Origin: Candidatus Iainarchaeum sp.
Lineage (GTDB): Archaea > Iainarchaeota > Iainarchaeia > Iainarchaeales > GCA-2688035
Length of the DNA stretch: 51,027 nt
NCBI GenBank assembly: GCA_017610205.1
Contig: JAFCCL010000010.1
Coordinates: 1 to 51,027, forward strand
Direction of reading: 5' to 3'
How positions within the stretch are numbered: position 1 is the stretch's first letter; every line of letters begins with the position of its first letter. Shown here one piece after another: positions 30,249 through 50,609 of this stretch. Position numbers and translations under genes: made by a program. The notes beneath the pieces are model-generated. The model saw only the letters and a list, made by a program, of their open reading frames with translations. It did no database searches and had not been told where the DNA came from.

Positions 30249-30917
30249 TTATAAAAAGGTGTTTGTTGCCATTTCAAGAGTTTTTTCTAGACCCAGCCTG
30301 TTTTTATCCTTTCCTAGCAAAACAGCGCCATGGCCGGGAAAAAGGGCTTTAAAGCCTATTTTTTGCAGTTTTTTAAGGCTTTCAACAAGCTTTTGGGCGT
30401 TTCCAGAAGCCAAATCAGTTCTTCCAAAGCCCTTTACAAACAGGCAATCACCTGAAAAAAGAATTTCGCCTGGTTCAAGCAAAAGGCAAATGCTTCCGCC
30501 GGTGTGGCCAGGTGAATGAATTACTTTAAGCTTCATTTTGCCAAGATCAAGCTCTTGTTTGTCCTTTAAAAAAAATGAAACCTTTGGCAATTCTGTTTCT
30601 GGAAAAAATTGAAGGCATGCAAAATCAGTAAGCCCTGCATTTATTTTTCTTGCATCAGATTCATGCATTGCAATTTTTGCATTTGGAAAAAGGGCATCGC
30701 AGCCAAAGTGGTCTGCGTGACCGTGTGTGTGAATTATTAATGTTACTTCAACAGGTTCAATGCCAATGCGTTCAAACCCTGAAATCAATGCACCTACATT
30801 GTCACGTGTACTTGAATCTATCAGAACAATTTCCTTTTTGCCCCTGAGCAAAAAGCAGTTGCTTCCGCCATTGCTTGGAATGAAAGCAAAAATGTTTGGA
30901 AAAATTTCTGAAAACAT
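30249..30917 (-). CDS. MBL-fold metallo-hydrolase (glyoxalase II-like)
   Basis: THGHADH, SPGHT.GS, FSGD, PGHG. Confidence 0.93.
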   Translation of the reverse strand: MFSEIFPNIFAFIPSNGGSNCFLLRGKKEIVLIDSSTRDNVGALISGFERIGIEPVEVTLIIHTHGHADHFGCDALFPNAKIAMHESDARKINAGLTDFACLQFFPETELPKVSFFLKDKQELDLGKMKLKVIHSPGHTGGSICLLLEPGEILFSGDCLFVKGFGRTDLASGNAQKLVESLKKLQKIGFKALFPGHGAVLLGKDKNRLGLEKTLEMATNTFL

Positions 30918-30958
30918 TAAAAGAATTAAATAGTAAGAAACTAAAAAGGAAAATGGTA

Positions 30959-30986
30959 AGGCAATGATGAGGTTAACACCTGCTGA
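30959..30986 (+). repeat. array repeat A (28 bp) AGGCAATGATGAGGTTAACACCTGCTGA
   Basis: 27/28 identical to repeat F. Confidence 0.95.
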
Positions 30987-31081
30987 CCTAACGGAATGCT
31001 GAAGAACTCAATTTTGGGCCTATTGTTCTATTTGTGGAAAAAGGAAAACTTATTAAGTAACTAAATTTATAACTAGCCATA

Positions 31082-32293
31082 ATGAAAAATAAAAAATATG
31101 TTCCGGGAATTTTAGTGCTACTAATTATTGGGCTTGTTTTCATAAGTGGCTGCGTTCAGGAGGGAACAGAAACCGCGCCTCCTGTTCTTCCTGGAGCAGA
31201 GCCTCAGGAGGATAAACCAGAGGATTATATTGAACAAATGTCTGAATCTGAATTACAGGAATTGTGCGAAAGAGAGTCCTGGCCTCTGGAGTGTAGTATG
31301 GTTCCTGACACAAAAGGCAGAGAATTGTGCGAAAAATGCAAAGAACTAACGGGAGAAGGAACAAGAGAAGGAATAATAAAAGAAGAAGACATAACTCAGC
31401 TTACTTTTTTAGAAAATCTTGCTGCTGATCCATCTTGGAGCCCTGATGGAAGCCAAATAGTTTTTTTGGGTTTGGAGAAAAACTTGACGGAAGGCGGACT
31501 GTATACAATGAATGATGATGGAACCGGGATTACTAAAATTGCTGGCCAATGGGGACGCGACCATCTCTTCAATCCTTCCTGGAATCCGGTCAGCAATAAA
31601 ATCGCCTGCCATGGGCCCTCAAGTGGTCAGGGGCCAGGAGGCGAGGGATTGTTTTTAGTTGACTTGAGTGGAGATCAAACAAAAAGAGTCCAGCTAACTT
31701 CACAGAGAGTGGAGTATGTAGGTTGGAACCATGATGGAAAAAAGATCGCTTATAACGTCTATAGAGATTATGATTCTTCTTCAAATGAATACGAATCTTC
31801 TTCGATATGGGTGATGAATACTGACGGAAGCGGACAAACCCAGTTAACTACCACAGCGGATGGCTTTTGCGCTGGCCCGTCTTTCAGTTATGACGGCTCG
31901 AAGATTGTTTATCTAAAAGGATTTACTACTACAATGGGTGGGTTAAAGCCTGAGAAAGCAGTAAATGAGATTTGGGTCATGAATAGCGACGGCTCGAACA
32001 AACACATGATTTATGCGCCAGGGGAGGGCATGCAATTGGTAAGGGAGCGAGCTTGGAATAAGGATGATAAAATTGTATTTGCAAGACATCAACAGCGCAG
32101 AGCCCCTCAAATCTGGGTTATAAACTCTGACGGCACTAATCCTCAATGTATACTCGATCCTGAAGCAAGCGGTATTCCAACAGCTATTTATGATGACTTG
32201 GTTTGGGATAATAACGGAACAAAAGTAGCAGCCACCAAGGTAATAGTAAGCGATGAAAGCTGGCAAATATCTACCTTTTCTTGGGGAGGCTGA
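31082..32293 (+). CDS. lipoprotein with a TolB/PD40-like beta-propeller
   Basis: ISGC lipobox; PSWSPDG and IWVMN.DGS repeats. Confidence 0.88.
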   Translation: MKNKKYVPGILVLLIIGLVFISGCVQEGTETAPPVLPGAEPQEDKPEDYIEQMSESELQELCERESWPLECSMVPDTKGRELCEKCKELTGEGTREGIIKEEDITQLTFLENLAADPSWSPDGSQIVFLGLEKNLTEGGLYTMNDDGTGITKIAGQWGRDHLFNPSWNPVSNKIACHGPSSGQGPGGEGLFLVDLSGDQTKRVQLTSQRVEYVGWNHDGKKIAYNVYRDYDSSSNEYESSSIWVMNTDGSGQTQLTTTADGFCAGPSFSYDGSKIVYLKGFTTTMGGLKPEKAVNEIWVMNSDGSNKHMIYAPGEGMQLVRERAWNKDDKIVFARHQQRRAPQIWVINSDGTNPQCILDPEASGIPTAIYDDLVWDNNGTKVAATKVIVSDESWQISTFSWGG

Positions 32294-32351
32294 GCACTAC
32301 CTCATAAGAAAAGAATTAATAGTTGAATTATACTAATATTTCTACGATATT

Positions 32352-35300
32352 ATGAAAACAGCAAATATCGCCCTTGCAATTTTTGCTCTGGTTATCCTTT
32401 TATTTAGCGGCTGCGTTCAGGACTGGACAAAAACCTCGTCACCTACTTTGTCTGGAATAGAACCTCAAGAGGAAAAACCAGAGAACGGTATTGAACAAAT
32501 ACCTGAATCCGAGCTGTGGGAAATATGTAAAAGGGAGAACTGGCCTGCAGACTGCAGTGTTGTATCTGGCCTGCAAGACAGAAAATTGTGTGAAAAATGC
32601 AAAAAATTAACTGAAACAGAAATTCAAAAAGAAGCAGGAAATGGAACAGCAGCAAGAGGCGAAAATGATCTGCCAAAGTATTCTAAATCACAAGACTGGG
32701 AAATTCCAAGCGAAATGTTCGCAGAGATAAAGATGGATATGCCTGAAGGAGCAGATGTTAAAGGATATTGTGTTGAAGGAACTAGTGTTCAGGAAATGAT
32801 GAATTGGTACAAAAACCAAATAACAGGCTGGACATTAAAAAAAGAAAAGCCTGCTACAAAAATTCCTGAAACTGGAATAACAATAGGCATGCTAATCTAC
32901 CATAAAGACACTGAAGGTATTGGCATAACTGTACTAAGCGGAACAAAATTAAAAGGCACGTGTTACACTCTGGCTGCCGGGTCTTGGTCATTGTTTGAAA
33001 AAAATGGCAAAGGCGGGAAAGAACCAGAAAAAGAAAAGCCCGCTGAAAGCACCACTACAAAGCAAGTTGGAGAATGGAGCAAGACATTCGGAGGGACAGA
33101 AGCAGATTATGCATGGCTAGTTAAGCAAACATCTGACAAGGGGTATATCCTAGTAGGAGGAACGATTTCTTTTGGAGCAGGTGACCATGATGTATGGCTA
33201 ATTAAAACAGACAGCTCTGGAAATGAAGAATGGAACAAGACTTTTGGGGGAACAGATTATGATGATGCGCATTCTGTCCAGCAGACATCAGACGGAGGGT
33301 ATATTATTGCAGGAAGTACTGTTTGTTTTGGCGCTGGAAAGTATGATGCATGGGTAATCAAAACAGACGGCTCAGGCAATGAAGAATGGAGCAAAACATT
33401 TGGGGGAACAGAAGATGATTATGCATATTATGTTCAGCAGACATCTGATAGAGGTTATGTAATTGCAGGAGAAACATGGTCTTTTGGGGCTGGAGGAAAG
33501 GATGCATGGCTTATAAAAATAGACAGCTCGGGAAATGAGGAATGGAGCAAGACATTTGGAGGGAAAGATGGCGAATGGGTACAGTCAGTCCAGCAGACAT
33601 CTGATAAAGGTTATATTATTGCAGGAAATATAGCTTTTGATGAAACTGGTAATCATGATGTATTACTCATAAAAACTGATTCACATGGAAACGAAGAATG
33701 GACTAAGACATTTGGCGGAACAGGGGACGAAGAAGGAGAAAAAGTTCAGCAGACATCTGATGGGGGATATATTCTTGTAGGGGGGACAACTTCTTTTGGA
33801 AATGGAAGCTGGGATTTCTGGCTGGTAAAAACTGATTCAAAAGGGAACAAAGAGTGGAGCAAAACATTTGGAGGAACAGAAGCTGAAGGAGCGAAAGAAG
33901 TTCAGCAGACTTCGGATAAAGGGTATATTCTCACAGGAAAGACACGTTCTTTTGGAGCTAAAAGAGAGGATGGCTCCAGGGTTTGGAATGGATTGCTTGT
34001 AAAAACTGATTCAAGTGGAAATGAGGAATGGAGCAAAAATTTGGGGGGATTAGATGATGAGGAAATGTTTTCAGTTATCCAGATATCTGATGGAGGTTAT
34101 ATTGTTGCAGGAAAGACAAAATCTTTTAGTGATAATGAAAATTGGGATGTATGGCTTGTAAAATATGGGCCTGAAGAAAAGCACACTGTCGCGAGCCCAA
34201 CAAATAGAGCCCTTGCATCGTTGTCCATGACTTCATCCACTGACGGCTGGGCAGTAGGGGATGACGGAACAATAGTCAGATGGGATGGCTCTGCTTGGTC
34301 AACTGTTGCAAGCCCCACAGGAGAATTTCTCCATTCAGTTCATATGCTTTCACCCACTGACGGCTGGGCAGTAGGGTTAATATCACGCACTGGCGGATGG
34401 GCAATGGGAACTGGCGGAAGGATAATCAAATGGGATGGCTCTTCGTGGTCAATCGCTGCCGAGCCCATGACAAGTTCTCTTTACTCAATTTACATGCTTT
34501 CATCCACTGACGGCTGGGCAGTAGGAGAACATGGAACAATAGTCAAATGGAATGGTTCTTCGTGGTCAACTGTCAAAAGCCCTCCAGCGAATTCTTTTTA
34601 TTCGGTTTACATGCTTTCATCCACTGACGGCTGGGCAATGGGGTGGAATGGAGCGATAATCAGATGGAACGGCTCTACATGGTCAAGTGTCGCAAGCCCT
34701 ACAAAAAGTTCTCTCTTATCAGTCTACATGATCTCCTCTGATGAGGGTTGGGCAGTGGGAGTCAATGGAGCGATAATCAGATGGAACGGCTCTACATGGT
34801 CACTTGTTTCGAGCCCCACAAAAGGTTCCCTTGCATCTGTTTACATGCTCTCACCTACAGACGGATGGGCAGTAGGGTATGAAGGAACAATAATCAGGTG
34901 GGATGGTTCTTCATGGTCAAGCGTTGCGAGCCACACGACAAACTCTCTTTATTCTGTTCAGATGCTCTCACCTGCAAATGGCTGGGTAGTAGGGTTTGGC
35001 GGGAAGATAATTCCCATTCCTCCGGAAACCAATAGTCCGCCAGTTATTGAAAACCAAAAAACAGAAGAGCAGAGTAATCCAACGCATCTGGCAACTTTAA
35101 CACCAGCGCTTAGCTGGGACTATTATGATGCAGATAATGATGCTATGGAACAGTGCCAGATTCAAGTCGGCACCTCAAAAAGTGACAGCAGTTTATGGGA
35201 TTATGCCTTAACCAGACAACAAGAGTTAGAGGGAGCTGTGCACAATGAAGCCTTTGATGACTTGGATAACATTAATTTTTCAAACCCGGGCAAGGCGTCT

Positions 35301-35966
35301 GTAGAAATTGACCCGCCTGGCCAATTGCATTACAATGCTTTGGCAGGGGGCGAGAGTTGGGGCAATATTAAATGGCAGGGATGGGAAATACCTGAAGATT
35401 ATACTTTTGAGATTAAGACATATTTTGACCAGATTGGTGAAGGACAAATGTTTTACCATATTATCAATTCTGCTACGTTACAGTTTATACCAGGCTTTAA
35501 GAGAACTGGTTTAGTTGTGACCCAAGAGCATATAGAAGTGCCAAATCTTGATACTTTAAATTTAATTGTTCCCGGAGTTGTTAAATACGGGGCAAATGCC
35601 GAGTGGCAGACATGGAAATTTGTGGTTACTAGTGATACCTGGATGACTGCAAGTACTGATATTTATTTAACTGATTCAACGCACACTAACCAGTTAATGG
35701 CTGAAGATGTTCCATGCCCGGTTTCCCCAATTCCTGGTGGAGCCAAAGGACCTTTCATATCTTTTGAAACAAGCGGGAATACTGAAGTGCACATAGACTA
35801 CCTTAAATTATATTATGATTCGGGAGTAAAAACCGTGGAGTTAATTCCTAGCGTAACTTATAGCGGTTCTGAGCTATTGCAGGACACCACATACCACTGG
35901 CGGGTTAAGTGTTATGATGGATATGACTGGTCGGATTGGGCTTACGGAACATTCAAGGCTGAATAA
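32352..35966 (+). CDS. large multidomain surface lipoprotein (two repeat/propeller regions and an FN3-like C-terminus)
   Basis: FSGC lipobox; about 7 WSKTFGG...QQTSDGGYI repeats; about 7 SPT..L.SV.MLS.TDGWAVG repeats; ends YHWRVK.YDG..WSDW. Confidence 0.88.
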   Translation: MKTANIALAIFALVILLFSGCVQDWTKTSSPTLSGIEPQEEKPENGIEQIPESELWEICKRENWPADCSVVSGLQDRKLCEKCKKLTETEIQKEAGNGTAARGENDLPKYSKSQDWEIPSEMFAEIKMDMPEGADVKGYCVEGTSVQEMMNWYKNQITGWTLKKEKPATKIPETGITIGMLIYHKDTEGIGITVLSGTKLKGTCYTLAAGSWSLFEKNGKGGKEPEKEKPAESTTTKQVGEWSKTFGGTEADYAWLVKQTSDKGYILVGGTISFGAGDHDVWLIKTDSSGNEEWNKTFGGTDYDDAHSVQQTSDGGYIIAGSTVCFGAGKYDAWVIKTDGSGNEEWSKTFGGTEDDYAYYVQQTSDRGYVIAGETWSFGAGGKDAWLIKIDSSGNEEWSKTFGGKDGEWVQSVQQTSDKGYIIAGNIAFDETGNHDVLLIKTDSHGNEEWTKTFGGTGDEEGEKVQQTSDGGYILVGGTTSFGNGSWDFWLVKTDSKGNKEWSKTFGGTEAEGAKEVQQTSDKGYILTGKTRSFGAKREDGSRVWNGLLVKTDSSGNEEWSKNLGGLDDEEMFSVIQISDGGYIVAGKTKSFSDNENWDVWLVKYGPEEKHTVASPTNRALASLSMTSSTDGWAVGDDGTIVRWDGSAWSTVASPTGEFLHSVHMLSPTDGWAVGLISRTGGWAMGTGGRIIKWDGSSWSIAAEPMTSSLYSIYMLSSTDGWAVGEHGTIVKWNGSSWSTVKSPPANSFYSVYMLSSTDGWAMGWNGAIIRWNGSTWSSVASPTKSSLLSVYMISSDEGWAVGVNGAIIRWNGSTWSLVSSPTKGSLASVYMLSPTDGWAVGYEGTIIRWDGSSWSSVASHTTNSLYSVQMLSPANGWVVGFGGKIIPIPPETNSPPVIENQKTEEQSNPTHLATLTPALSWDYYDADNDAMEQCQIQVGTSKSDSSLWDYALTRQQELEGAVHNEAFDDLDNINFSNPGKASVEIDPPGQLHYNALAGGESWGNIKWQGWEIPEDYTFEIKTYFDQIGEGQMFYHIINSATLQFIPGFKRTGLVVTQEHIEVPNLDTLNLIVPGVVKYGANAEWQTWKFVVTSDTWMTASTDIYLTDSTHTNQLMAEDVPCPVSPIPGGAKGPFISFETSGNTEVHIDYLKLYYDSGVKTVELIPSVTYSGSELLQDTTYHWRVKCYDGYDWSDWAYGTFKAE

Positions 35967-36144
35967 AAGTATGCAATCAAAAAGGGTTTATAAAATTAAG
36001 TCCTGTTATTATATGATGAAAATAAAATCTGCTTCCCAAACCTTTAATAATTATAGTTTGTCTGACATAGAGCAATCACAGAGTCACATTTGGACTTAAC
36101 AGCAAACCAATAACATTTAAGCAATCATTGCCATTGGGTGCTAT

Positions 36145-36162
36145 AGGCAATGATGAGGTAAA
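36145..36162 (+). repeat. array repeat B AGGCAATGATGAGGTAAA
   Basis: 17/18 match to the core; intergenic. Confidence 0.93.
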
Positions 36163-36231
36163 TCACTATAGTGATGTATAGGGATTATAGTAATCTTTTT
36201 AAGGCACCCTCTACTTGCTTAGGTGTTAGCT

Positions 36232-37668
36232 TTATATTGATTGTTTGAAATCCTCAAGATCAAATGCTAAGAATCCTCTTTTCCTAAGTTTTTCTTTTCC
36301 CCTAATTTTTTTTGCAACCAAACCAAGCTTTAAGTTTGGAAGTTTTTTGTACAAATGACTTGTTTTCTTTTCAAGTTCGCTTAATGTGTTTATTGCTTCT
36401 TTATCTGTTAATTCACTCCACTTGAATTCAAAAGCAAAACTTTCTTTTCCCTTCTTTGCAATCAAATCAATTTCGTAAACATTTTCTCCTTTTTTCTTGC
36501 CTTGAATTTTTCCCCATTGCCGTTTAGCTTCCTTTAAATCTAATTCTTTTATTAAAAATTCTTTTGCAACTTCTTCAAAGGCTTTACCATAAACTGTATT
36601 CAAATTGCCCTTCAGTTTTTCCACAAACTCGTATTTCCTCGAAACATAATCAGAATAGTTTTTGTAAATCTCTGAAAACCAGTAGTGCATTAATGGGTGT
36701 TTAACTTTGTATATGCCTCTTTTTCCTTCAAAAGGCATTTCAAATTCAATTAACTCAAAGTAATCCTTTAACTCTTTAATCTGTCTAGTGATTGAAGTGG
36801 GTCTTGTATTTAAAGTGCTTGCAATTAGTGACGAGGTGTTGTTTCCATTAGCAATTGCTTCAAGGATAGAGTAGTATACCCCGCTTCTTCCGCCAAATTC
36901 TTGGGAAAGAATACTATTAACCTCGTCCTCTAACGGCGCGTTTCTTACAAACAAAAGAGAATTAAGGATTTCTTCTGCTTTTTTCGTTTGCAAACCAAAG
37001 TCTTCAATTGCAACAAAATACTTGGGGTAGCCGCCAAAAATACAATAAATTTTTATCAGGTCTTCTTTGCTTAACTTTAGTTCCTTGCCTAACTCCAAAC
37101 AGGAGCTAAAACTTAAGGGCTCAAGCTTGGAACCTCTTTTGATTCTTCCGTACAACGGTTCTTTGGAACTCCTAAACAAATTCTTTATCAGACCAATCAA
37201 TGAACCAGAAAGAATAATCAAACCAGGCCTGTTCTCATTCAAATCAATATATTTTTGCATTATGCCAAAAATAGCTGGATCTACAAAACTAAAATTCTGG
37301 AACTCGTCAAAAACAACAGGAGGTGCTTTTCTTGTCATCAGTATTTCAAAAAATTCATCCCAAGAATTAAGTTTCTCTAATTTTCCGACTATCCCATTTA
37401 TTCTCATTATTTCTTGAAATTCATTGAGTAAATCAGCAGAAGTTTTGTTTTTATTGACAAAAAAATATAGCCCATCTTTTCCATAGCCCTGCCCTGAACC
37501 ATCACTAAATCCCTGCCCAGAACCAACTATGCGAAGAAACTCAAGCAAGAGCCTAGTTTTTCCGACTCTCCTTAAACCAAACAAAGCAATGACAAAAAGC
37601 TTTTTCCTAGAGAGATTTCCAAGCTCTTGTAATTCTTTTAATTCAGCAGACCTATCAACAAACCTCAA
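36232..37668 (-). CDS. archaeal ATPase with a wHTH and a C-terminal DUF234-like PD-(D/E)XK domain
   Basis: FVDR..EL, GLRRVGKT (Walker A), FDEFQ (Walker B), PLYGR, GGYP.Y, EIDLIA...FEFKW. Confidence 0.9.
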   Translation of the reverse strand: MRFVDRSAELKELQELGNLSRKKLFVIALFGLRRVGKTRLLLEFLRIVGSGQGFSDGSGQGYGKDGLYFFVNKNKTSADLLNEFQEIMRINGIVGKLEKLNSWDEFFEILMTRKAPPVVFDEFQNFSFVDPAIFGIMQKYIDLNENRPGLIILSGSLIGLIKNLFRSSKEPLYGRIKRGSKLEPLSFSSCLELGKELKLSKEDLIKIYCIFGGYPKYFVAIEDFGLQTKKAEEILNSLLFVRNAPLEDEVNSILSQEFGGRSGVYYSILEAIANGNNTSSLIASTLNTRPTSITRQIKELKDYFELIEFEMPFEGKRGIYKVKHPLMHYWFSEIYKNYSDYVSRKYEFVEKLKGNLNTVYGKAFEEVAKEFLIKELDLKEAKRQWGKIQGKKKGENVYEIDLIAKKGKESFAFEFKWSELTDKEAINTLSELEKKTSHLYKKLPNLKLGLVAKKIRGKEKLRKRGFLAFDLEDFKQSI

Positions 37669-37906
37669 ATATATTCACCTACTGAATAATTCAATAACTG
37701 AATATCTATTTAAAAGCATTGTTTGGCCGAAAATCGGCCACATTATCTTTTAATGCCATTAACACCCATTTGCAACAGCAATGACGAATCTTATGTCTGG
37801 TTTTTGAAAAAAGAACGAAGTCAGGGCTTATTTTGTTTGGAAACACAAGGAATATAAAAAATAGTACGAGCAATACTTTTAACATATAATCTCTGAACAT
37901 CTCTGT

Positions 37907-37924
37907 AGGCAATGATGAGGTTAA
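37907..37924 (+). repeat. array repeat C AGGCAATGATGAGGTTAA
   Basis: Exact core; also shares about 30 bp of upstream sequence with repeat F. Confidence 0.95.
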
Positions 37925-38012
37925 GACAATTAAATGATATAGGTAATTGATATTTTTTCTTCAACCACTTTTGTACCAAAATTTATTTATTATTTAAAGG
38001 ATAAATATGTTT

Positions 38013-38269
38013 ATGGTAATTAAAAAATTGCTTTGGTTTCATTTGTTGTTTTGTTGGTTCTTTTTAGCGGCTGTTTGCAGAATGTTAGAGCCCCTAATCC
38101 AGAGCTTTGTGATAAGGTATCCCAACAAAGCAGTAAAGATGTTTGTTACCACAGAACTGCCTTGGCCACGGGCGACGATATTTTATGCAGCAAAATCGTT
38201 GAATTGAATGAAAGAGACGACTGTTATATTGATTTGGCGGTTGGAAGAACCAGCTATTTCATTGATTAG
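38013..38269 (+). CDS. small Cys-repeat lipoprotein, apparently frameshifted in an A6 run near the start
   Basis: FSGC lipobox and C..I.....D.CY repeats; ATG 38013 is one base out of frame. Confidence 0.6.
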
Positions 38270-38277
38270 GTGGAAAA

Positions 38278-38817
38278 ATGCCTTTAACGCCGTTTCATCT
38301 CGGGCCTGCTTTGTTTTTTGGATTATTGTTTTTTAGGCTAATTAACTTGCCTGCTTTTTTGATTGCCAACGTTGTTGTTGATATTGAACCTTTCTTGATT
38401 TTATTCTTAGGTTTAGATTTACCTTTGCATGGTTTTTTTCATTCCTTTTTAGGTGGCTCTATAATCGTAATCATTCTTTCCCTTGCAATGATTAAAATGG
38501 ATAAACCAGTTCAGAAAATAATGTCCGCTTTTAAACTTGGGCAAAAATATTCCAAAAGAAGCATTTGGCTTGCATCGTTTTCAGGAATTTACTTGCATAT
38601 CCTGCTTGATTCCATACTCTATACTGATATTAAACCATTCTTTCCATTGAATGTCAACCCATTTTATAACAGCTCAATGTTTGCCGGGTTTGAAATATAC
38701 AGCCTCTGTGTAATCTTGTTTATTTTAGGGCTTGCATTATATGCCTACAAAGCACTGAAACAGCGAATACAAAATCCAATCAATAACATTAAATCATTTA
38801 TCTTCTATATTGTCTAA
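38278..38817 (+). CDS. membrane-bound metal-dependent hydrolase (DUF4184/YdjM-like)
   Basis: MPLTPFH, D.EP, LHGFFHS, HILLDS....DIKPF.P. Confidence 0.85.
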   Translation: MPLTPFHLGPALFFGLLFFRLINLPAFLIANVVVDIEPFLILFLGLDLPLHGFFHSFLGGSIIVIILSLAMIKMDKPVQKIMSAFKLGQKYSKRSIWLASFSGIYLHILLDSILYTDIKPFFPLNVNPFYNSSMFAGFEIYSLCVILFILGLALYAYKALKQRIQNPINNIKSFIFYIV

Positions 38818-38818
38818 C

Positions 38819-38836
38819 AGGCAATGATGAGGTTAA
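38819..38836 (+). repeat. array repeat D AGGCAATGATGAGGTTAA
   Basis: Exact core, 1 bp after the upstream stop codon. Confidence 0.95.
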
Positions 38837-38885
38837 CGACAAAAGCACAATATAGAAGATGTAGCTATTTTAAGAAAAAGTTCTT

Positions 38886-40100
38886 TTATTTACCTAAGTG
38901 TTTTTCGAAGAGATCGAGCCAGTTAAGCACCAGTCTTGTTATCAAGAAATTGTTTTTTACATGCTCTTTTCCATTTTTTCCAAGCTCATTTCTCAGTTTT
39001 TCGTCTTTCAGAATTTTTATTACGCTCTTGCTAAAGCACTTGGTTTCATTTGGCTTGTGCAAAAACCCATTTATGCCATCAATTACTTGAAGTGGAATCC
39101 CCCCAACGTTGGAAGCAACGACAGGTGTTCCTTTGTATAATGCTTCGCTTACAGTTAACCCAAAGCCCTCCCTTTTGGATTTCTGGACGACAACTGAGGA
39201 TGCCCGCTGAACACAATTAACAAGGAAATCGTTTGCAACTGAAATCAGCCTAATGTCCTTGCTGTATCTGCTTTCTTTTGTTCTTTTTTCAAGTTTTTCA
39301 AAGAGTTTTTGGCCCTCGGGATCATCTAAGGCAAACTCGCCAAGCAGAACCAGCTGGCAGTCCAGCTTGCTCCTAACCTGTTCAAAGACCTTTACAACAC
39401 CAATTGGGTCCTTCCACTTGTCAAACCTTGATATTTGTGAAATAATTGGCTTGTTCAGGTCTATTCCGTATTTGCTTGTATACTTTCTAATTACTTCTCC
39501 ACTTGTAGTCTTGTTTTTTGCGCTCAATGGGTCTATGGCTGGCCAGATAACACTTTGAGGAATTTTTAAACGCTTCTTGTATTCGTTTTTTGATACAACA
39601 AAGTGGTCATATTTTTTAAGGAAAGTTTTTAAGTAATCCCAGACTTGGGTATTTGGGTTGGTTAGGTCAATATGACACCTGAAAATCCAGGGCTGCTTCT
39701 TTTTATAAAAGGAAATCAATGGCAAAGGCTGGGGGTCATGCACTATAACCAAGTCATGGTCTAGGTGATTAAAGCTTGAAAAGCGCTTGTTTGTTTCAAA
39801 ATAAATCTCCTTTTTTCTTTTTGAGAGGTTTATGTTCGCTCCCTGCAAGGCATTGTGAAACTTCTTTGTAATTGTAAAGAAGTCCGGCGTCCCATGCAAA
39901 ATCCGCCAGCCCAAATCTATTCCAATTTCGTTGAACAAAATCACAGTGCTGTTGAGCAGCTCTGCAACCCCACCACCCTGATACGTGGAATTTATGAAAA
40001 CAATGTGCTTGTTTGCCAATCTTTCCGCTTTGTTGTGAATACTTTCAATGGCTTCTTTTCCGGCAATCTTTTCATATTTTTTCAGGTTCGGCATGTTCAT
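38886..40100 (-). CDS. treT: trehalose glycosyltransferring synthase (TreT-like GT4)
   Basis: INST..GGGVAELL, HDPQP, W..RCHID, SRFD.WKDP, EGFGLTVSEA. Confidence 0.85.
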   Translation of the reverse strand: MNMPNLKKYEKIAGKEAIESIHNKAERLANKHIVFINSTYQGGGVAELLNSTVILFNEIGIDLGWRILHGTPDFFTITKKFHNALQGANINLSKRKKEIYFETNKRFSSFNHLDHDLVIVHDPQPLPLISFYKKKQPWIFRCHIDLTNPNTQVWDYLKTFLKKYDHFVVSKNEYKKRLKIPQSVIWPAIDPLSAKNKTTSGEVIRKYTSKYGIDLNKPIISQISRFDKWKDPIGVVKVFEQVRSKLDCQLVLLGEFALDDPEGQKLFEKLEKRTKESRYSKDIRLISVANDFLVNCVQRASSVVVQKSKREGFGLTVSEALYKGTPVVASNVGGIPLQVIDGINGFLHKPNETKCFSKSVIKILKDEKLRNELGKNGKEHVKNNFLITRLVLNWLDLFEKHLGK

Positions 40101-40146
40101 ATTATTTGGTGATGGTTGTTTATAAACATTTAGACTCTGGAAGCAT

Positions 40147-42147
40147 CTATTCTTTCAATTTTTCCAAAACTTCTCGTACGCCTTCTGTCGCTGGCTTGGC
40201 TGTTACCTGGTTTGCCAACCTTTTAAGTTTTTTGGTGGCATTTGCTAGGGCAATCTTGAAGCCTGGGTTCAAGAACATGTCTTCGTCGTTTTCTCCGTCT
40301 CCAATCAAAACAGTCTTTTCAAGGTCTATATCCAAATACCTCATCACAAGCCTTAGCCCAAGACCCTTGTCAACACCTGTGGGAAGCACCATGGTCTCGT
40401 CCACGTTCTTGATAAAATTCAGGTCTTTGGCAAGCTTTCCAAGCGTCCTCTTTACCAAGCTCTCGTCATTTGCACGCACACTCGCTATAACCTCGCCTAA
40501 AGTGGTTCCCTGAAGCTTAAGTGCCCTTATCATTTCCCTTGCTTTTCTCATATGCTCTGTATTGATTACTATTGTTTTTTTTGTTAGAGGAAAATAGAGC
40601 ACTGCTCCGTTCTCTGCAACCACGCCTGCCCAGCACTTGAATTTCTTGCACATGTCTCTAACAAAGCCAATGCTTCTGCCTGTTGCAAGAAACAAGGGCA
40701 CATTCAAGCTTTTCAATTCATTCAGTAGCTTGGAATCAAAGTCTGTTGGGTCAAATCTTCGTTTGCATGGCTTGTCAGTTATAGTTCTGTCTAGGTCAAC
40801 AACAATTGCCCTGATATCTGACAGGTCAAGGTATTCAATCCTATGAAATTCGTCTTTGATTCTCTTAATCGAGTTGTAAAGCATCAGGTGCCTTTCAACA
40901 CCGTTCTCAATCTTAAAGTTTTTGTCAACCAGTTCAAGGGACTTTTTTGACATCTTTTCGCTCAGTGATTCCCCTCGCAAGAACTTAAATATGCTTGCAT
41001 CGCCTTTTATAATCTTAACAATACTTCTGGCAGTGGCCTTTATGTCACCAACATCAACTAAAAAACCATTCTCGCCATCCTTTATCTGGATAGGGATGCC
41101 GCCTACCTTTGTTCCCACTACTGGCTTGCCGCAGGCCATGCCCTCAGTTATTGCCAAGCCAAAACCCTCATTCTTTGAACACAATGCTACGACATCAGCG
41201 CTGTTGTACAACTCTGGCAAAATGTGGTAGTCAATGGTGCCTGTCCAAAACACACTATTCTCCATACCAAGGTCTTTTATTAAATTTAACACTTTTTGCT
41301 TCAAAGCCTGCCTGCTTTTTGAAAGCTTGTTGCTCATCGAGTTGCCGCCAACAAAAACAAGCTTTGCATTAGGCACTTCTTTGATTATTTTAGGCATTGC
41401 TTTAATTAGCTGTTCATGGCCTGATTTTGGGTCAACTCTTTGAACGCTAAGAATAATCCTTGAATTTGCAGGGATTTTGTATTTCCGCTTCACAACAGCC
41501 TTGTTTATGTCCATTTTCTTAAAGAGGTTAGTGTTAGCAATAGGGTATATCAGCTCAGTTTTTTCTCTTGGAAGGCCAAGCTTTACAGCTACCTCTATGT
41601 AATCTTGGGACGAAAAAACGACCTTGTCATATTCCTTAAGGTGTTTTATTAAAAACTTGGCCAGGTGTTTTGACATGTTTTCTATAAATGGAATGTGCCA
41701 AGTTAGGATGCAGGGCATGCCCCTTGGCACATACTTGTAAGTAAACAGAAGTTGGAAATCATGGATATGCACTACATCAGCAGGTTGTTGCTCAAGCAAT
41801 TCTCGCAACTCTTCGCCAAAGTACTCGTTAACCTTGTTGTACTCTTCAAAGCCTTCAATCTTATCAGGGGGCTTGTCAAATTCCTTCACATTGTAGTGGC
41901 ATTCCTTATAAACGGTTTCCTTGAATAGGCTGTATCCCTTCATTATTTCAAAATCAATGGGTTCCCTTGGAACCCGGTGTATTTCGATGCCTCTAATCTC
42001 GTCCTCGTAATCTTCCTCGGCAAGCCTTAAATGCACCTCAACAACTTCATTGCCGTTCTTTTTCATCTCTTTCGCAAGGTTCAAAAGGTATGTGGAAACT
42101 CCGCCGATATGCGGATAAAAAGACTGACTTGCGTAATAGATTTTCAT
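40147..42147 (-). CDS. GT4 glycosyltransferase fused to a C-terminal HAD-IIB phosphatase
   Basis: GGVSTY, HIHDFQ and EGFGLAITE in the GT part; DLDRT, ATGR, ENG, K and IGDGEND in the HAD part; start at ATG 42147. Confidence 0.88.
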   Translation of the reverse strand: MKIYYASQSFYPHIGGVSTYLLNLAKEMKKNGNEVVEVHLRLAEEDYEDEIRGIEIHRVPREPIDFEIMKGYSLFKETVYKECHYNVKEFDKPPDKIEGFEEYNKVNEYFGEELRELLEQQPADVVHIHDFQLLFTYKYVPRGMPCILTWHIPFIENMSKHLAKFLIKHLKEYDKVVFSSQDYIEVAVKLGLPREKTELIYPIANTNLFKKMDINKAVVKRKYKIPANSRIILSVQRVDPKSGHEQLIKAMPKIIKEVPNAKLVFVGGNSMSNKLSKSRQALKQKVLNLIKDLGMENSVFWTGTIDYHILPELYNSADVVALCSKNEGFGLAITEGMACGKPVVGTKVGGIPIQIKDGENGFLVDVGDIKATARSIVKIIKGDASIFKFLRGESLSEKMSKKSLELVDKNFKIENGVERHLMLYNSIKRIKDEFHRIEYLDLSDIRAIVVDLDRTITDKPCKRRFDPTDFDSKLLNELKSLNVPLFLATGRSIGFVRDMCKKFKCWAGVVAENGAVLYFPLTKKTIVINTEHMRKAREMIRALKLQGTTLGEVIASVRANDESLVKRTLGKLAKDLNFIKNVDETMVLPTGVDKGLGLRLVMRYLDIDLEKTVLIGDGENDEDMFLNPGFKIALANATKKLKRLANQVTAKPATEGVREVLEKLKE

Positions 42148-42290
42148 CCAGTCGCCTCTACGACTGCAAAAACAGTATGCGCAACTACACAAATAGAATC
42201 TGAGTCAGGATCATCACCTTCATCTGAATCTGAAATTTCCAACCAAAAACCCCGCTTAATTCTACTCTATTAACGAATTCTTTATAAGTA

Positions 42291-42776
42291 TTACGCCATT
42301 GCACATTTAATTTGCTCGGACAATGCAGGTTTAAGAATTTGGCTTTCACAAGTTTGCGTTCTTTCATTTGCCTTTAATCTATTATAAACTATCCCTGCGT
42401 ACTTTTCTGCTTTATCTGCTGAAGGCATTTCTATTTCGGAAACAAGTATTATGGCTGCAAAAATGTTTCTTGCAACAAAAGACAGTTTTAGGTAATAGCG
42501 GTCTTCTTCTTTGTATTTAAGAATGAAGTCTTTTTCTCCAAATTTATTTAATTTTGATATTTCTGCATCTTCATAATATTTTTATTCAACTAACCTTTTT
42601 TCAGCTCTAAAAGACCTGTTAAACCTTTCGCTTGGAACGAGACTTAACCCTAAGTCTTGTTGCCCAGTGGTAATAGGTAGTGGCTTCTCCAAAGCGCACA
42701 AAACAGAGTCATACGAAACTACCATTTGTTCGCCAAGAACTTTTTTGCTAAAGCTTATTTGGTAGCTTTTTACATT
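42291..42776 (-). pseudogene. decayed gene, about 160 codons with an internal TAA and no start
   Basis: Hand translation NVKSYQISF...KRLVE*KYYEDAEISKLNKFGEKDF...AEKYAGIVYNRLK...; one in-frame TAA at 42582-42584. Confidence 0.55.
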
Positions 42777-42827
42777 TTAGGGGGCATCGGAAGGTTTAAA
42801 TGGGGGGGGTTATCGCCTACGTTTTTT

Positions 42828-42845
42828 AGGCAATGGCGAGGTTAT
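42828..42845 (+). repeat. array repeat E (degenerate) AGGCAATGGCGAGGTTAT
   Basis: 15/18 match; intergenic, at the junction between divergent modules. Confidence 0.75.
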
Positions 42846-42953
42846 TGTCGGAAAAAGCATAAGGAATGACACTAATTTAAGTTCCCTAAATGCCTCCTAA
42901 GGTGAATAGGGCATGAATAGACGAGCTTTTAAACGGTACATTCTCAGCGATTG

Positions 42954-42986
42954 CTGAACCTCGCCGCACTAAAGTGCGGGGCTTCC
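42954..42986 (-). mobile_element. orphan IS200/IS605-type right-end hairpin
   Basis: Minus strand GGAAGCCCCGCAC-TTTA-GTGCGGCGAGGTTCAG; same GAAG-hairpin-TCA layout as the tnpB right end. Confidence 0.6.
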
Positions 42987-43317
42987 CAACCCAAAAATGC
43001 AACAGAAAAGCAGAAGCAGTAGTCAAAAAAATCAAATACTTTCTAAACAAGTTTGGAACCCAAAACATTGAACACGCAAACCAGCTACTTGAATTGTTCC
43101 AAAAACAGTACAACAACAGGCTATAGTTAAGATTAAACCATTTTTCGTTCAACTAACTATATAGTGACAAGCAAAAAAACGGGGTTATATGCGTTATCAC
43201 ATAACAACTAAGGAAGATGAGAAGGAAAGAGGACTAAACATACTTTAAGGGTAAAGCATTTAGCCCGCCTTTTTTTTAACATTATAAAGAGTTTCATAAG
43301 GATGGATGTGAAGAAGA

Positions 43318-44523
43318 ATGAAAAGGATGTCAACTAAAATGGGAAAAGATAAAGGTATGAAACAAGATAAAATGATAAACGTTTTGCTGGTGGCAACCCT
43401 TAATCGACCGGTCAGGTCAGATCTTGGTTATGCCCCTATAGAAACGGTCATTTATAATATTGATAAAGGACTTCATAATTTAGGTCACCATTCGATTGTT
43501 GCCTGTTCAGGTGATTCCAAAGTTACCGGCGAACAATTAGTGACTGTCAAGCGAAGCTTTGGTGGGTACTGGAGTGAGGATACTCCAGAAAAGCGTAAAA
43601 GCATACGTTTGCACCTTTTTAAGGCATTGGAAAGGGCAGGTAAGGGTGACATCGACATAATCCACTTGCATGATGCAGCAATGGTAGAGTGTATTTATAA
43701 GGGGGTATTCAAAAGCCCGGTTCCAATCGTGATGACCCTACATGTCCCCGCTCAAGACAGGGGATCTTTCAAGCAGTGGTCTAAATCATTGACATCTTCT
43801 TCCAGGGTGTATTTTGTCCCGATAAGCAAATATCAAAAAAGGCAGCATTATGGCTTAGCAAATACCATGAACGTTATCCATCATGGAATTGATGTGGAAA
43901 ACTACCCGTTTAAAAGTGAGATGGACAAAGAAAGCTATCTGTTTACTATCGGCAGAATAACTAAAGTCAAAGGACAGGATATAGCCATAAAAGTTGCAAG
44001 AAAAACAGGTTCTAAACTTATTATAGCTGGTAATGTTCAGAACAAAGCGAAAGATAGAAAGTTTTTTGAAAAATTAAAAAAGTCTATTGACCTATGTGTT
44101 GAGGCAGGCAAATACCCTGCTGATAATGATTATTATGAGAAGGTAATGAAACCATTATTGGACTGTGACAAACAGATTATCTACATCGGAGAAATCAGTA
44201 GAGAGCAAAATAAATTATGGTATCTGCATGCCCGGGCTACTTTATTCCCCATTCAATGGGGTGAACCATTTGGACTTGTAATGATCGAGTCAATGGCGTG
44301 CGGTACACCAATTTTGGCATTTAGAAAAGGTTCTGTCACAGAGATTGTGGTAGAAGGGAAAACAGGATTTGTCGTAGACTCCATTGGTGGTATGATTGAA
44401 GCAGTAAAACATATTGATAGTATCGATCCTTGTGTATGTCGGAAATACGTTCAGGATAATTTCTCTGTAATAAGTATGGCTCAAAAGTATTCAAAATTGT
44501 ATCAAAAGATTCTAGGATCCTAA
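43318..44523 (+). CDS. GT4 glycosyltransferase (start uncertain)
   Basis: GY.PIE, TLH, HHGID, GRI..VKG, W.EPFGLVMIESMACGTP. Confidence 0.92.
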   Translation: MKRMSTKMGKDKGMKQDKMINVLLVATLNRPVRSDLGYAPIETVIYNIDKGLHNLGHHSIVACSGDSKVTGEQLVTVKRSFGGYWSEDTPEKRKSIRLHLFKALERAGKGDIDIIHLHDAAMVECIYKGVFKSPVPIVMTLHVPAQDRGSFKQWSKSLTSSSRVYFVPISKYQKRQHYGLANTMNVIHHGIDVENYPFKSEMDKESYLFTIGRITKVKGQDIAIKVARKTGSKLIIAGNVQNKAKDRKFFEKLKKSIDLCVEAGKYPADNDYYEKVMKPLLDCDKQIIYIGEISREQNKLWYLHARATLFPIQWGEPFGLVMIESMACGTPILAFRKGSVTEIVVEGKTGFVVDSIGGMIEAVKHIDSIDPCVCRKYVQDNFSVISMAQKYSKLYQKILGS

Positions 44524-44639
44524 TAATAGGATGTTCCGGTGGAGGAGTATATGAAGTCATACAGAATGATATTAATGGCTACCTAACTGCCCAAGATGAT
44601 TCTGTGGAATTAACAAAAAAGATGGGTGCATTAAAATAG
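44520..44639 (+). pseudogene. orphan C-terminal fragment of another GT4 glycosyltransferase
   Basis: LIIGCSGGGVYEVIQNDINGYLTAQDDSVELTKKM matches the GT4 pattern P.I....GG..E.I....NG.L....D...L. Confidence 0.6.
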
Positions 44640-44674
44640 CAACTTTTATTAAGGTATTCACTCTGTTAGAACAT

Positions 44675-45751
44675 ATGGTTTCAAAAGAAAGAATAAAATC
44701 ACTTTGGGAAACGAGTAAAAAAGTTATTTTGGACTGCTCACTTGAAAATGGTGCAATTGTTGCTGCTAACTCTGATAAGTCTTATTACCCAAAAGATGCT
44801 TATAATTATAGATATATTTGGCCTAGAGATGCGGGCTATATCTGTGTAGCTGCACAAGAAGCAGGCATTGACACCATACAAAAGCCATTTTTCGATTGGG
44901 TACTAGAAAGATCTGAAGGTTTCAAGGAGACCAATCTTCTTTACCAAAACTATTCAACAAATGGAACAAAATTTTGGTTGAGTTTTCAACCAGACCAAAA
45001 TGGCACAATGCTTTGGGCAATTTATAAGTTCTTTGAGAAAAAAAAGATACCAAAAAAATATGTCACGCTTATAAAAAAACTCGCAAATGGATTATGCAAT
45101 ATATGGGACAAAACTCATTTTACAAAAAAGACCCAGGGTTTGTGGGAATACTATTACTGTTACCCTGATTTAGATGAGAACCATACTTATTCCTTGGCAG
45201 CTTGCGCTCAAGGCCTTAATCTAGCAAATAAGCTTATAACTAACAAGAGATGGGAAATTGTTTCAAAGCAAATGGTAAAGCAAATCCAACAAAGATATGC
45301 TCAAAAACTCAATTATTTTACAAGGACAACAGGAAAGATCAAGCTTCTAAAAATTGATGCATCGCTAATAGGTTTAGTATATCCTTTTGATATTGTAAAA
45401 CCTAACGATGAAAGAATGATTAAGACAATTGAGATTATGGAAGCTAAAATTATGGTCAAGACTGGCCTATTGAGGTATGAATATGACACTTATGATGCTT
45501 GGGCAATTGAAGGTGGTTACAGAGGAAAGGGAGCAGGAAGTTGGCCTTTGCTCAATTTCTGGTTGGCAATTTATTATTATCAATCTGGAAACAAAAAGAG
45601 CGCTTTGTCATTGTATAATAAAACATTAAAACAATTTGAAGATTACATACCTGAACAAGTTTTTGATAACGATATACAACAAACAGTAAAACCTTTAGCT
45701 TGGGCACATGCAATGTTTATTCTTGCCACAAAAGAGTTGGGTTTAATATAA
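44675..45751 (+). CDS. GH15-like glucoamylase/trehalase
   Basis: GAIVAA, Y.YIWPRDA, Q.DQ, LWE, DAS, RYE.D.Y, PEQ, PLAWAHA. Confidence 0.88.
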   Translation: MVSKERIKSLWETSKKVILDCSLENGAIVAANSDKSYYPKDAYNYRYIWPRDAGYICVAAQEAGIDTIQKPFFDWVLERSEGFKETNLLYQNYSTNGTKFWLSFQPDQNGTMLWAIYKFFEKKKIPKKYVTLIKKLANGLCNIWDKTHFTKKTQGLWEYYYCYPDLDENHTYSLAACAQGLNLANKLITNKRWEIVSKQMVKQIQQRYAQKLNYFTRTTGKIKLLKIDASLIGLVYPFDIVKPNDERMIKTIEIMEAKIMVKTGLLRYEYDTYDAWAIEGGYRGKGAGSWPLLNFWLAIYYYQSGNKKSALSLYNKTLKQFEDYIPEQVFDNDIQQTVKPLAWAHAMFILATKELGLI

Positions 45752-45964
45752 GTTCGAGTACGTCTTTGCTCCTTATTACATTCCTGAAACTAAGCTCGTC
45801 ACTCTCAATCTTATGTCTTGTATTTTGGTCAGTATTATTGTAAGCAAGCATCATTTATTGGACTGTACCCCTAAACGGGACAACTGGTTAAAGCAATATG
45901 TATTTCTGGCCATTTTTCCCTCAAAAAACATTAATTTTAACATATAATCTCTATACATGTCTGT

Positions 45965-45992
45965 AGGCAATGATGAGGTTAACGCCTGCTGA
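45965..45992 (+). repeat. array repeat F (28 bp) AGGCAATGATGAGGTTAACGCCTGCTGA
   Basis: 27/28 identical to repeat A. Confidence 0.95.
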
Positions 45993-46021
45993 AGCAAATG
46001 TAGATAGTCAAACTACGTTCT
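45965..46021 (+). ncRNA. candidate C/D-box-like small RNA (terminal box D not evident)
   Basis: Box C ATGATGA, 12 nt, CTGA, C'-like ATGTAGA, then AGTCAAACTAC; TATAAT about 20 bp upstream. Confidence 0.3.
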
Positions 46022-46087
46022 TTTAATGCGCATTAAACGGATGCTATTTATATACTTTAATGTGGATTTATTGTGTATGGTGATTGT

Positions 46088-46324
46088 ATGAATGCTGACC
46101 TTGGTGTGCCCTATGAGGCAATTTTAAAGAAGGCAATTGAAAGAGGTTATGCCGGAAACCAGACAGAAGTTGTCAGGCAGGCTTTGCTCAATTACGAGAG
46201 AATGATTGACGAAGAAGAAAAAGAACTTGTTGCCAAAGCTATTAAAATAGAAATGGGCGAAGTAAAAGCAGGAAAAATCAAAACAAAATCCTTTAGTGAA
46301 GTCAAGAAAAAATTCAAGTGGTAA
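46088..46324 (+). CDS. putative antitoxin (RHH-like)
   Basis: G.Y..N..EVVR.AL pattern; C-terminal GKIKTKSFSEVKK; translationally adjacent to the toxin. Confidence 0.7.
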   Translation: MNADLGVPYEAILKKAIERGYAGNQTEVVRQALLNYERMIDEEEKELVAKAIKIEMGEVKAGKIKTKSFSEVKKKFKW

Positions 46325-46325
46325 A

Positions 46326-46586
46326 ATGAAAATACAGATTCTTGAAACCGCTGAAAAAGAACTTGAAAAAATAGCCAACCCCTTAAACAAACAATTCGGG
46401 AAACATATTGAAAAAATCGCCTCAAAAGAAACCAATAGACACCTGAAAAGTGGTTTGCCTTACTTCACTGAAAATGTTACAAAACAGGCAAGACTTATCT
46501 GCTATATTAAGGAAGAAACTATTTATGCGCTGCATTGCTTTGCAGGCCACAAAGAATACAAAAGATGGTACAGGTCATTTAAGTAA
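46326..46586 (+). CDS. putative RelE/ParE-like toxin
   Basis: A.KELEK, H...G, RLI......IY......H..Y; about 86 aa, basic, downstream of the antitoxin. Confidence 0.65.
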   Translation: MKIQILETAEKELEKIANPLNKQFGKHIEKIASKETNRHLKSGLPYFTENVTKQARLICYIKEETIYALHCFAGHKEYKRWYRSFK

Positions 46587-50547: not shown

Positions 50548-50609
50548 AGTTCCCAAAAATAATGGCAATGCAAAGTTTTTAAAAAATGCTTCAACATTAT
50601 TATTTATGT

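Follow-up and report, generated by a model that had tools for sequence, protein, structure and literature searches.

Why does one 18-base sequence recur six times, always in the same orientation, between self-contained groups of genes in the genome of an uncultured archaeon? The question is raised by a stretch of 51,027 nucleotides (nt) from Candidatus Iainarchaeum sp. (assembly GCA_017610205.1, contig JAFCCL010000010.1, forward strand), the whole of which is hereafter called the window, and by the variable island that it contains at 30951-46594, between a gene for an MBL-fold hydrolase (30249-30917, minus strand) and an RPA-like gene (46613-47965, plus strand). A preliminary description of this DNA had read the island as an integron-like array, built by repeated insertion at an undescribed kind of site. 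Our analysis points to another origin for the site, as the 18-mer is the 5' end of a conserved gene for a C/D box small RNA (sRNA). Integrative elements that carry a Xer-like tyrosine integrase probably use this 5' end as the core of their attachment site, and the island of the window would be an array of such modules, without an integrase, at a secondary site. In what follows, the source genome is G000, other G-numbers are related genomes, C-numbers are contigs and L-numbers are contig or locus labels.

Six copies of one sequence in the window

On the plus strand, copies of the 18-mer begin at 30959 (no mismatch), 36145 (one mismatch), 37907 (none), 38819 (none), 42828 (three) and 45965 (none), and a scan of the window allowing up to three mismatches returned no match beyond these six. 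The chance expectation for the window is 0.08 occurrences, and six were reached in none of 100 shuffles. Each copy is placed between long open reading frames (ORFs), the modules so delimited run in alternating directions (+, -, +, -, +), and the two outermost copies, at 30959 and 45965, are identical at 27 of 28 bases. On all these points the window scan, the ORF list and the sequences themselves bear out the preliminary description, and the gene names that it gave hold in Pfam. When the six copies were aligned with 80-110 nt on either side, conservation ended at the edges of the 18-mer, and this alignment of copies and flanks revealed no terminal inverted repeats common to the six. Readings of the site as a CRISPR repeat or as the end of a transfer RNA (tRNA) gene, which had been set aside at the outset, are excluded by the anatomy of the sites. 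It had also been stated that no recombinase was in view, and Pfam detected none in the window, the five PF00589 matches of G000 all lying on other contigs.

The 18-mer as the start of a guide RNA gene

A C/D box sRNA gene opens with the 18-mer, which supplies its 5' stem (AGGC), box C (AAUGAUGA) and six guide bases (GGUUAA). The complete order can be followed at position 112858 of contig C10 in G000, where the AGGC stem and box C AAUGAUGA are succeeded by a guide of 12 nt, box D' (CUGA), a short hairpin spacer, box C' (AAUGACGA), a second guide, box D (CUGA) and the GCCU stem. An RNA of 58-71 nt headed by the 18-mer, with boxes C, D', C' and D and a GGC/GCC stem, was found in 21 relatives. The stem of the D'/C' spacer covaries, both sides changing in two of two pairs with 100% of cells paired, and the covariation score of the whole RNA structure was reached by none of 500 shuffles. 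A covariance model built from the relatives only (21) gave 87.4 bits for C10 112858, 78.3 bits for the copy at C13 116818 and 69.6 bits for window positions 30959-31021, with all remaining copies at 13-32 bits. Within the window, 30959-31021 (plus strand) is the only full-length paralogue, with stem, box C, D' guide, D', C' and D guide, its box D reading UUGG, not CUGA; in the remaining five, only box C and the 5' half of the stem are left (13-31 bits). Rfam returned for the window only a sub-threshold C/D match, to sR1 at the first copy (17 bits, E-value 4.7).

Because the ribosomal RNA (rRNA) genes of G000 were not found in its assembly, the guides were tested on the 23S rRNA of relatives. 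The target of the D' guide is present in five of five, and that of the D guide, 29 nt further on and in the homologous place, in three of five, with at most two mismatches, one of them a G-U pair. Under the N+5 rule, the methylated nucleotide is the one that pairs at the fifth position from box D or D'. On the numbering of E. coli rrlH, transferred by ungapped alignment with the letters at 2552, 2553, 2580, 2581 and 2583-2585 checked, the fifth pair falls on U2552, in the A loop, for the D' guide and on G2581 for the D guide, and these two nucleotides of 23S rRNA would be the predicted targets of 2'-O-methylation. Genes for fibrillarin (267 bits) and Nop5 (228 bits) lie adjacent to each other on C16 of G000. 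No RNA sequencing run containing the window stretch is listed, and the best DNA runs carry about one tenth of the sampled words.

That these 18 bases open a guide RNA gene accounts for their strict conservation. Two other readings were tried by eye and rejected, namely a tiny leaderless ORF starting at ATGATG, whose reading frame is not kept among the copies, and a Shine-Dalgarno role for GAGGT, whose spacing is not kept among them either.

Copies and their arms in the genome and its relatives

The family counts 14 copies on five contigs of G000. The eight outside the window, found by a genome-wide scan, stand at C2 4530 and 6811, C10 110121 (four mismatches), 111589 and 112858, C13 116818 and 121461, and C19 367, that at C10 110121 being assigned to the family by its leader. 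Two further matches with three mismatches, on C3 and C16, have no promoter-like sequence upstream and no family leader and were set aside as chance, with their ORFs unchecked. The earlier statement that no comparable copy occurs outside the island is correct for the window and fails for the genome. Among 61 genomes of the order, belonging to 49 genera, 31 genomes in 24 genera hold the 18-mer with at most one mismatch, and the reversed control gives zero everywhere. Scattering of the motif had been named in advance as an observation that would speak against site-specific insertion. It is partly what we see, as the motif is not confined to the island, but the site-specific reading is still supported.

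Around each match with at most one mismatch, 0.3-1.5 kb (sometimes more) was taken, giving a collection of 103 copies. Two or more copies occur on 25 contigs, where neighbouring pairs are co-oriented in 34 of 34 cases. Where a cluster holds exactly one intact sRNA gene, this is the 3'-most copy in nine of ten, the exception being the C13 cluster, in which box D has already changed. Not every cluster counts as an independent case, those on G000 C10 and G003:C65 being orthologous. A TATA-like promoter belonging to one of a few recurrent classes precedes nearly every copy, its box lying 25-30 nt before the copy, and one of several recurrent leaders follows. By a crude measure of identity, 119 of 5050 pairs of copies are alike over the 40 nt upstream and unrelated over the 60 nt downstream, against ten alike only downstream and no more than three alike on both sides, a pattern in which the upstream and downstream arms assort freely.

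The promoter class most commonly found with the intact sRNA (L009, L016/L081, L048 and G047:C27 7108-7140) reads like the start of the sRNA minus box C, AGGCA-TTAACACC, so that TTAACACC is present twice, about 20 nt upstream of the core and again just behind it. In relatives and metagenomes, contig ends often fall about 80-115 nt away from a copy, and many contigs have their first base some 100-113 nt upstream of one. Examples are G020:C14 (at base 1), G004:C18 and G001:C133, together with L146, L153, L156 and L161, which all begin with one and the same promoter. Either the copies break assemblies or several alleles may coexist in the sampled populations. A second flanked island is seen at C13 116818-121478 of G000, with a copy at the stop codon of the upstream gene, five ORFs of 210, 310, 206, 547 and 188 amino acids (aa) and, 270 nt short of the contig end, a second copy. 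Contig C19 starts with another copy, and the gene behind it matches the gene behind the copy of G005:C145, so C13 and C19 may adjoin.

A tyrosine integrase linked to the core

The gene that connects these copies with recombination encodes a Xer-like tyrosine recombinase, about 430 aa long, whose C terminus has a zinc ribbon. Its scores stay under the curated cut-offs, at 85 against 220 for XerA, and 43.2 against 265 and 18.9 against 435 for the NCBIfam integron integrases. In G047:C27, a PF00589 gene lies between two copies, with its start codon about 80 nt behind the copy at 7141. The same order of copy and then integrase is found at G004:C18, G018:C187, C136, C167, G020:C72, G044:C7 and G027:C43, and at G001:C18 only the last 64-65 aa of the integrase are left behind its copy. 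Taking one genome per species, a 14-base core lies 81-90 nt upstream, co-oriented, in ten of ten relatives of this integrase with at least 38% identity, a count that leaves out one further relative starting at a contig end, and it lies upstream of none of the 16 relatives in the species collection with 37% identity or less. Among metagenome contigs, the core is present for 12 of 15 testable relatives of the integrase and for none of four distant ones. Over genome and metagenome loci together, the integrase is found 81-108 nt downstream of the copy.

Direct copies bound three integrase-bearing segments, at G047:C27 7141..13250 (6.1 kb) and G020:C72 12660..82 (12.6 kb), both of which end in an intact sRNA gene, and at G044:C7 38409..48897 (10.5 kb), which has a copy on either side. 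Their cargo includes a type III restriction-modification pair, MazF, a winged-helix protein, a Hjc/Mrr-like nuclease, AAA_14/DUF4143 ATPases and a 2'-5' RNA ligase-like protein. The stretch common to each flanking pair of copies is GGCRATGATGAGGT, and the neighbouring bases differ. We infer that the first 14-15 bases of the 18-mer, GGCAATGATGAGGT, form the identity core of the attachment site.

In G047:C27, a direct repeat of 300 nt (6727-7026 and 12840-13139, 88% identical), with an ORF for a DUF2703/thioredoxin-like protein, stands just upstream of each of two consecutive promoter-core units, in the manner of related elements placed in tandem.

The preliminary description had required a recombinase acting in trans. 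Its absence from the island stands, and the motif does co-occur in relatives with a clade of element-borne, Xer-like tyrosine integrases beside the core, but these are ordinary enzymes of their family and not of the integron type; no serine recombinase (PF00239) was found in G000. No credible core was found within the 7-11 kb scanned around each of the five PF00589 genes of that genome. The leader of C10 110121 resembles that of a second integrase subclade, with the gene missing, and the leader of window copy 37907 does so more weakly. Viral contigs held no close relative of the integrase, their one match having 25% identity. The DNA of the genes beside the G004:C18 integrase has no match in G000, so no comparison with an empty site is possible there.

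Module mobility and occupancy of the locus

A contig from another family of the order, G040:C28, carries window positions 42827-45405 (leader, GT4 and GH15) at 95.7% identity. In front of that part, as far as the copy at the 3' end of a gene, the same contig matches G000 C13 (synthetase and kinase-like genes) with 77.7% identity. In a three-way alignment, the switch from C13-like to window-like sequence falls within the 18-mer. On this alignment, module 5 of the window (core copy, GT4 and GH15; 42827-45751, plus strand) is evidently mobile. Among congeners, the GT4/GH15 pair is 92-98% identical (G003, G004) and the TreT/GT-HAD pair 88-89% (G004), with the hydrolase and RPA flanks at 68-83%. 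The TreT/GT-HAD pair has other neighbours in G004:C37 and C22, and a 5.1 kb contig of run X10 carries it with promoter plus core on both sides. The four sequencing runs were examined as assembled contigs (of relatives) only, in which circles and ends are not visible.

At the locus between the MBL-fold hydrolase and RPA genes, the flanks are joined directly, with neither insert nor motif, in G003 and G006. In a third congener (G004:C65) there is a solo promoter-less copy followed by about 27 nt, and in a fourth (G005:C47) a different array of 4.9 kb, with a degenerate copy at its left edge and promoter, core and mini-sRNA at its right. The preliminary description had looked to this interval for empty sites and exchanged cassette sets with breakpoints inside the motif. 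Empty and differently filled loci were found, and at least one breakpoint lies inside the motif, but some lie outside the core. The mini-sRNA (G005:C47 6397-6428) is a 32 nt C/D unit with stem, box C, one guide, CUGA and GCC, and the solo copy of G004:C65 is a decayed form of it.

A proposed mechanism and its alternatives

How might integration at a guide RNA gene leave an array such as that of the window? The element would have the order promoter, core, leader of about 65 nt and integrase gene. A crossover inside the core would place the integrase and its cargo behind the resident promoter, and the element's own promoter and core would end up before the sRNA body, so that the sRNA gene would be restored. 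Further elements could enter at any resident copy, and their integrase genes would then decay or be lost. The outcome would be arrays in which cargo modules alternate with co-oriented copies, each copy pairing the promoter of one element with the leader of another. The window island would be one of these arrays, with five cargo modules and a small tail of two ORFs, no integrase, and two copies with integrase-type leaders. In this scheme we infer catalysis by the integrase, circular intermediates, the order of events and any movement in trans of modules that have no integrase. Repeated site-specific insertion at one asymmetric core by a recombinase encoded elsewhere, which the preliminary description had proposed, is supported by relatives, where copies join unrelated DNA on either side and a junction lies inside the motif, but it is not proven for this island.

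Several observations weigh against this proposal. Some concern the window and its homologous locus. In G003:C68, the sequence diverges from the window 24 nt upstream of the copy at 45965, and G004:C37 shares promoter, core and TreT with the window, with about 45 nt just behind the core that differ. Neither G003 nor G006 has a copy at this locus, so the insertion that came first did not use a resident core. There is no core copy at the island's right edge, and the leftmost copy has the full sRNA body, which the simple model would put at the right end. Others concern the enzyme and its substrate. Three of the 15 metagenome relatives of the integrase (L152, L154 and L155; 39-42% identity) have no core; no integrase of the linked clade was found in G000 (92% complete), whose five PF00589 genes are 25-29% identical; and no free or circular element or attP was seen, there being no terminal overlap in the integrase metagenome contigs and no viral contig. 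By eye, the core lacks the usual dyad symmetry. The sampling bears on the counts as well, as degenerate copies farther from matches with at most one mismatch would be missed and related genomes are not independent samples.

Part of this evidence would be explained if the copies were dispersed sRNA paralogues or fragments with their promoters, spread by duplication and shuffled by homologous recombination or gene conversion over the short promoter and core, the integrases having merely acquired a promoter-leader unit and no site-specific reaction having built the island. We consider this unlikely, though it accords with the few recurrent TATA-like promoter classes before nearly every copy, with the breakpoints that fall at the promoter edge or behind the leader, outside the core, with the lack of a linked integrase in G000 and with the absence of any copy at the locus in G003 and G006; moreover, duplicated and transposed C/D sRNA genes, and ones resembling miniature inverted-repeat transposable elements (MITEs), are described in Pyrobaculum (PMC6009581). 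Dispersal alone would not lead one to expect co-orientation of all 34 neighbouring pairs or an intact gene at the 3' end of nine in ten clusters, however, and it sits poorly with a spacing of integrase and core that stays at 81-90 nt in genomes from several families, with direct copies that bound integrase-bearing segments, and with two-sided identity that stops sharply at a core of 18 bases, a short length for homologous exchange to be efficient. Exchange between copies, by gene conversion or homologous recombination, probably takes place as well, and for the history of the window itself it is the chief rival. Quite improbable, in our judgement, and in any case compatible with integration at the core, is the idea that the 18-mer is kept as the transcription start and box C leader of a regulon, for example as an L7Ae-bound half of a kink-turn that controls the stability or translation of downstream genes, the integrase included. 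The position of the copies 25-30 nt behind TATA-like boxes, the co-oriented ORF some 80-135 nt downstream of eight of 12 copies in G000 and the conservation of leader types between families are what a regulon would show, and binding of archaeal L7Ae to mRNA leaders has been reported (PMC5539422). Yet four of the 12 copies (36145, 38819, 42828 and C2 4530) face the 3' end of a convergent gene, most non-canonical copies are without a box D partner, and regulation leaves the co-orientation, the polarity and the chimeric junction unexplained.

An integron proper, in which an IntI-type integrase and attI capture promoter-less ORF-attC cassettes, is what the cassette-like modules with one repeated, co-oriented site between them first suggest, and it is the alternative to which we give the least credence, well below the others. 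The linked integrase falls far short of the integron-integrase cut-offs given above. No hairpin is common to the flanks, the single-stranded DNA folding z-scores of the six sites with their flanks being -0.5, -3.1, 0.2, -1.4, -0.1 and -0.1, so that only one of six, the 36145 region, lies below -2. Further, the modules bring their own promoters and run both ways, and the site belongs to an RNA gene. The integron-like array of the preliminary description was therefore not upheld in this literal sense. A looser version, which we put forward tentatively and hold to be somewhat doubtful, would be an integron-like exchange of cassettes made from other parts: a Xer-like integrase, provided in trans by a resident or an incoming element, would recombine the 14-base core derived from the stem and box C of the guide RNA, any segment lying between two co-oriented copies could be excised as a circle and inserted again at any other copy, whether in its own species or a different one, and promoters would be swapped in the process, so that guide RNA, integrase and cargo would stay expressed.

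Relation to known systems

Integration at the core of a guide RNA gene has its closest parallel in the pTN3-like integrases of Thermococcales, for which attB is described as the 5' half of a tRNA gene, the restored gene being read from the element's promoter (PMC8371274). Set beside pTN3 by description, the elements reported here share an attB in the 5' part of a small RNA gene, restoration of that gene, the use of the element's promoter and a tyrosine recombinase. They differ in having a C/D box sRNA gene as target instead of a tRNA gene, an identity segment of only about 14-18 bases and a core within the leader of the integrase gene, 81-90 nt upstream, and in forming arrays of up to six copies with short cargo modules lacking an integrase. 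Tandem integration followed by loss of the integrase gene is also known for archaeal elements according to the same source (PMC8371274).

Bacterial islands and prophages integrate in tRNA, transfer-messenger RNA (tmRNA) or ffs genes, and they too are described with a conserved small RNA gene as target and an attP core near the integrase gene (PMC12540744). The present case is set apart by an archaeal host, another class of RNA and the use of the 5' end with a swap of promoters. As for the marks of an integrative element in an RNA gene, an integrase beside the attachment site occurs in relatives and not in the window, and direct-repeat flanks together with a restored gene occur in G047:C27 and G020:C72, G044:C7 having two copies. 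The elements are thus a variant of RNA-gene-targeting integrative elements and not an integron. With integrons they have in common exchangeable modules, one recombination site between them and a recombinase acting from elsewhere, whereas IntI, the attC fold and a common Pc promoter are missing, module orientation is mixed and the modules have promoters of their own.

Seen as RNA genes, the full-length sRNAs have the usual archaeal C/D box features: box C (RUGAUGA) near the 5' terminus, boxes D' and C', box D (CUGA) near the 3' terminus, a terminal stem, two guides of 10-12 nt directed to neighbouring rRNA sites and their own promoter. Most window copies depart from this by keeping the stem, box C and six guide bases (13-31 bits, against 70-87 bits for full-length genes). 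In Pyrobaculum calidifontis, a C/D sRNA family is reported to have expanded to about 15 copies, in unstable regions and with many of them degenerate (PMC6009581). Those MITE-like elements keep boxes C and D and are flanked by conserved inverted repeats (PMC6009581), in contrast to the copies studied here, which keep only the 5' end, share no terminal inverted repeats, form co-oriented clusters and are tied to an integrase.

Features of the island and its surroundings

On the island, Pfam identifies a PD40 propeller lipoprotein, ATPase_2 with DUF234, YdjM, TreT, GT1 with HAD, GT4 and GH15. Module 1 (31082-35966, plus strand) comprises two lipoprotein genes, one for the PD40 propeller protein of 403 aa and one for a protein of 1204 aa. 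It is followed at 36105-36205 (plus strand) by a TATA-like promoter, the core copy 36145-36162 with its single mismatch and an integrase-type leader without an integrase gene, as identified by alignment. Measured from the start of the core, its colinearity with seven integrase-linked leaders extends over about 58 nt and ends about 25 nt before their start codon. Upstream of the copy stands an inverted copy of GGCAATGAT. More precisely, 36125-36153 holds an inverted copy of the left half of the core (ATCATTGCC, about 13 nt, then GGCAATGAT), and promoters of this class also occur in L056, L023, L030 and L069; the arrangement may serve as an operator or as a dyad that binds protein at the attachment site.

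Module 2 (36232-37668, minus strand) encodes an ATPase with ATPase_2 and DUF234 domains. ATPases recur directly beside copies or integrases, at window 36232-37668, G000 C2 5400-6710 and G047:C27 3052-4320 and 8714-9973, Pfam naming that of the window ATPase_2/DUF234 and those of G047:C27 AAA_14/DUF4143. The next unit (37865-37960, plus strand; 16.6 bits in the model) contains a promoter, the core copy 37907-37924 and a leader like that of the second integrase subclade, with a run of T at its end. Module 3 (38033-38817, plus strand) consists of a small lipoprotein and a YdjM-like membrane protein gene. Comparison of promoters and leaders places at 38778-38885 (plus strand) a promoter, the core copy 38819-38836 and a leader of the CnACAAAnGCACAATATAGAAGAT type, which is also found at G000 C2 6811, G038 84566 and G006:C12 16778.

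Module 4 (38886-42192, minus strand) carries TreT and the GT1-HAD fusion. At 42790-42900 (plus strand; 13.2 bits), a promoter precedes the degenerate core copy 42828-42845, with three mismatches, and a leader with a C'-like AAUGACA and a D-like CUAA, this being the left junction of module 5. Behind module 5, the unit at 45925-45992 (plus strand; 31 bits) has a promoter, the core copy 45965-45982 and CGCCTGCTGA (D' guide and D' box), after which the sequence is unrelated. Two small overlapping ORFs of 83 and 96 aa (46073-46586, plus strand) lie between this last copy and the right edge of the island. They had been labelled a toxin-antitoxin pair in the preliminary description, and Pfam gives no match. 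The end of the 96 aa ORF resembles the end of the ORF that stands before the promoter-core-TreT unit in G004:C37 (L033, reverse strand 2674-2800; translations compared by eye). Away from the island, the window encodes an archaeal signal recognition particle RNA (50606-50883, 137.6 bits) and tRNAs Val-TAC (7600-7671), Gly-GCC (10259-10330) and Gly-TCC (11796-11866), none of which adjoins it.

Significance

A gene for a C/D box guide RNA, used as an attachment site, would be a new class of target. A 2021 review names tRNA genes, a few protein genes and intergenic sites as the targets of integration in archaea, and the word sRNA does not occur in it (PMC8371274). In the literature searched, no paper was found that joins a C/D box sRNA with attB, or with an integrase and an integration site in archaea.

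Methylation at the A-loop nucleotide Um2552 is near-universal, and the sRNA whose gene starts with the 18-mer is, from its guide sequence, likely to direct this modification in the present lineage. A short defined site together with a compact integrase would provide candidate parts for genetic tools. The presence of core copies would also account for the places at which assemblies of this group break. Finally, integration at such a site would explain how modules for sugar metabolism, the cell surface and defence are traded across families of genome-reduced, uncultured archaea, as seen where a module with 95.7% identity stands next to a flank with 77.7%.

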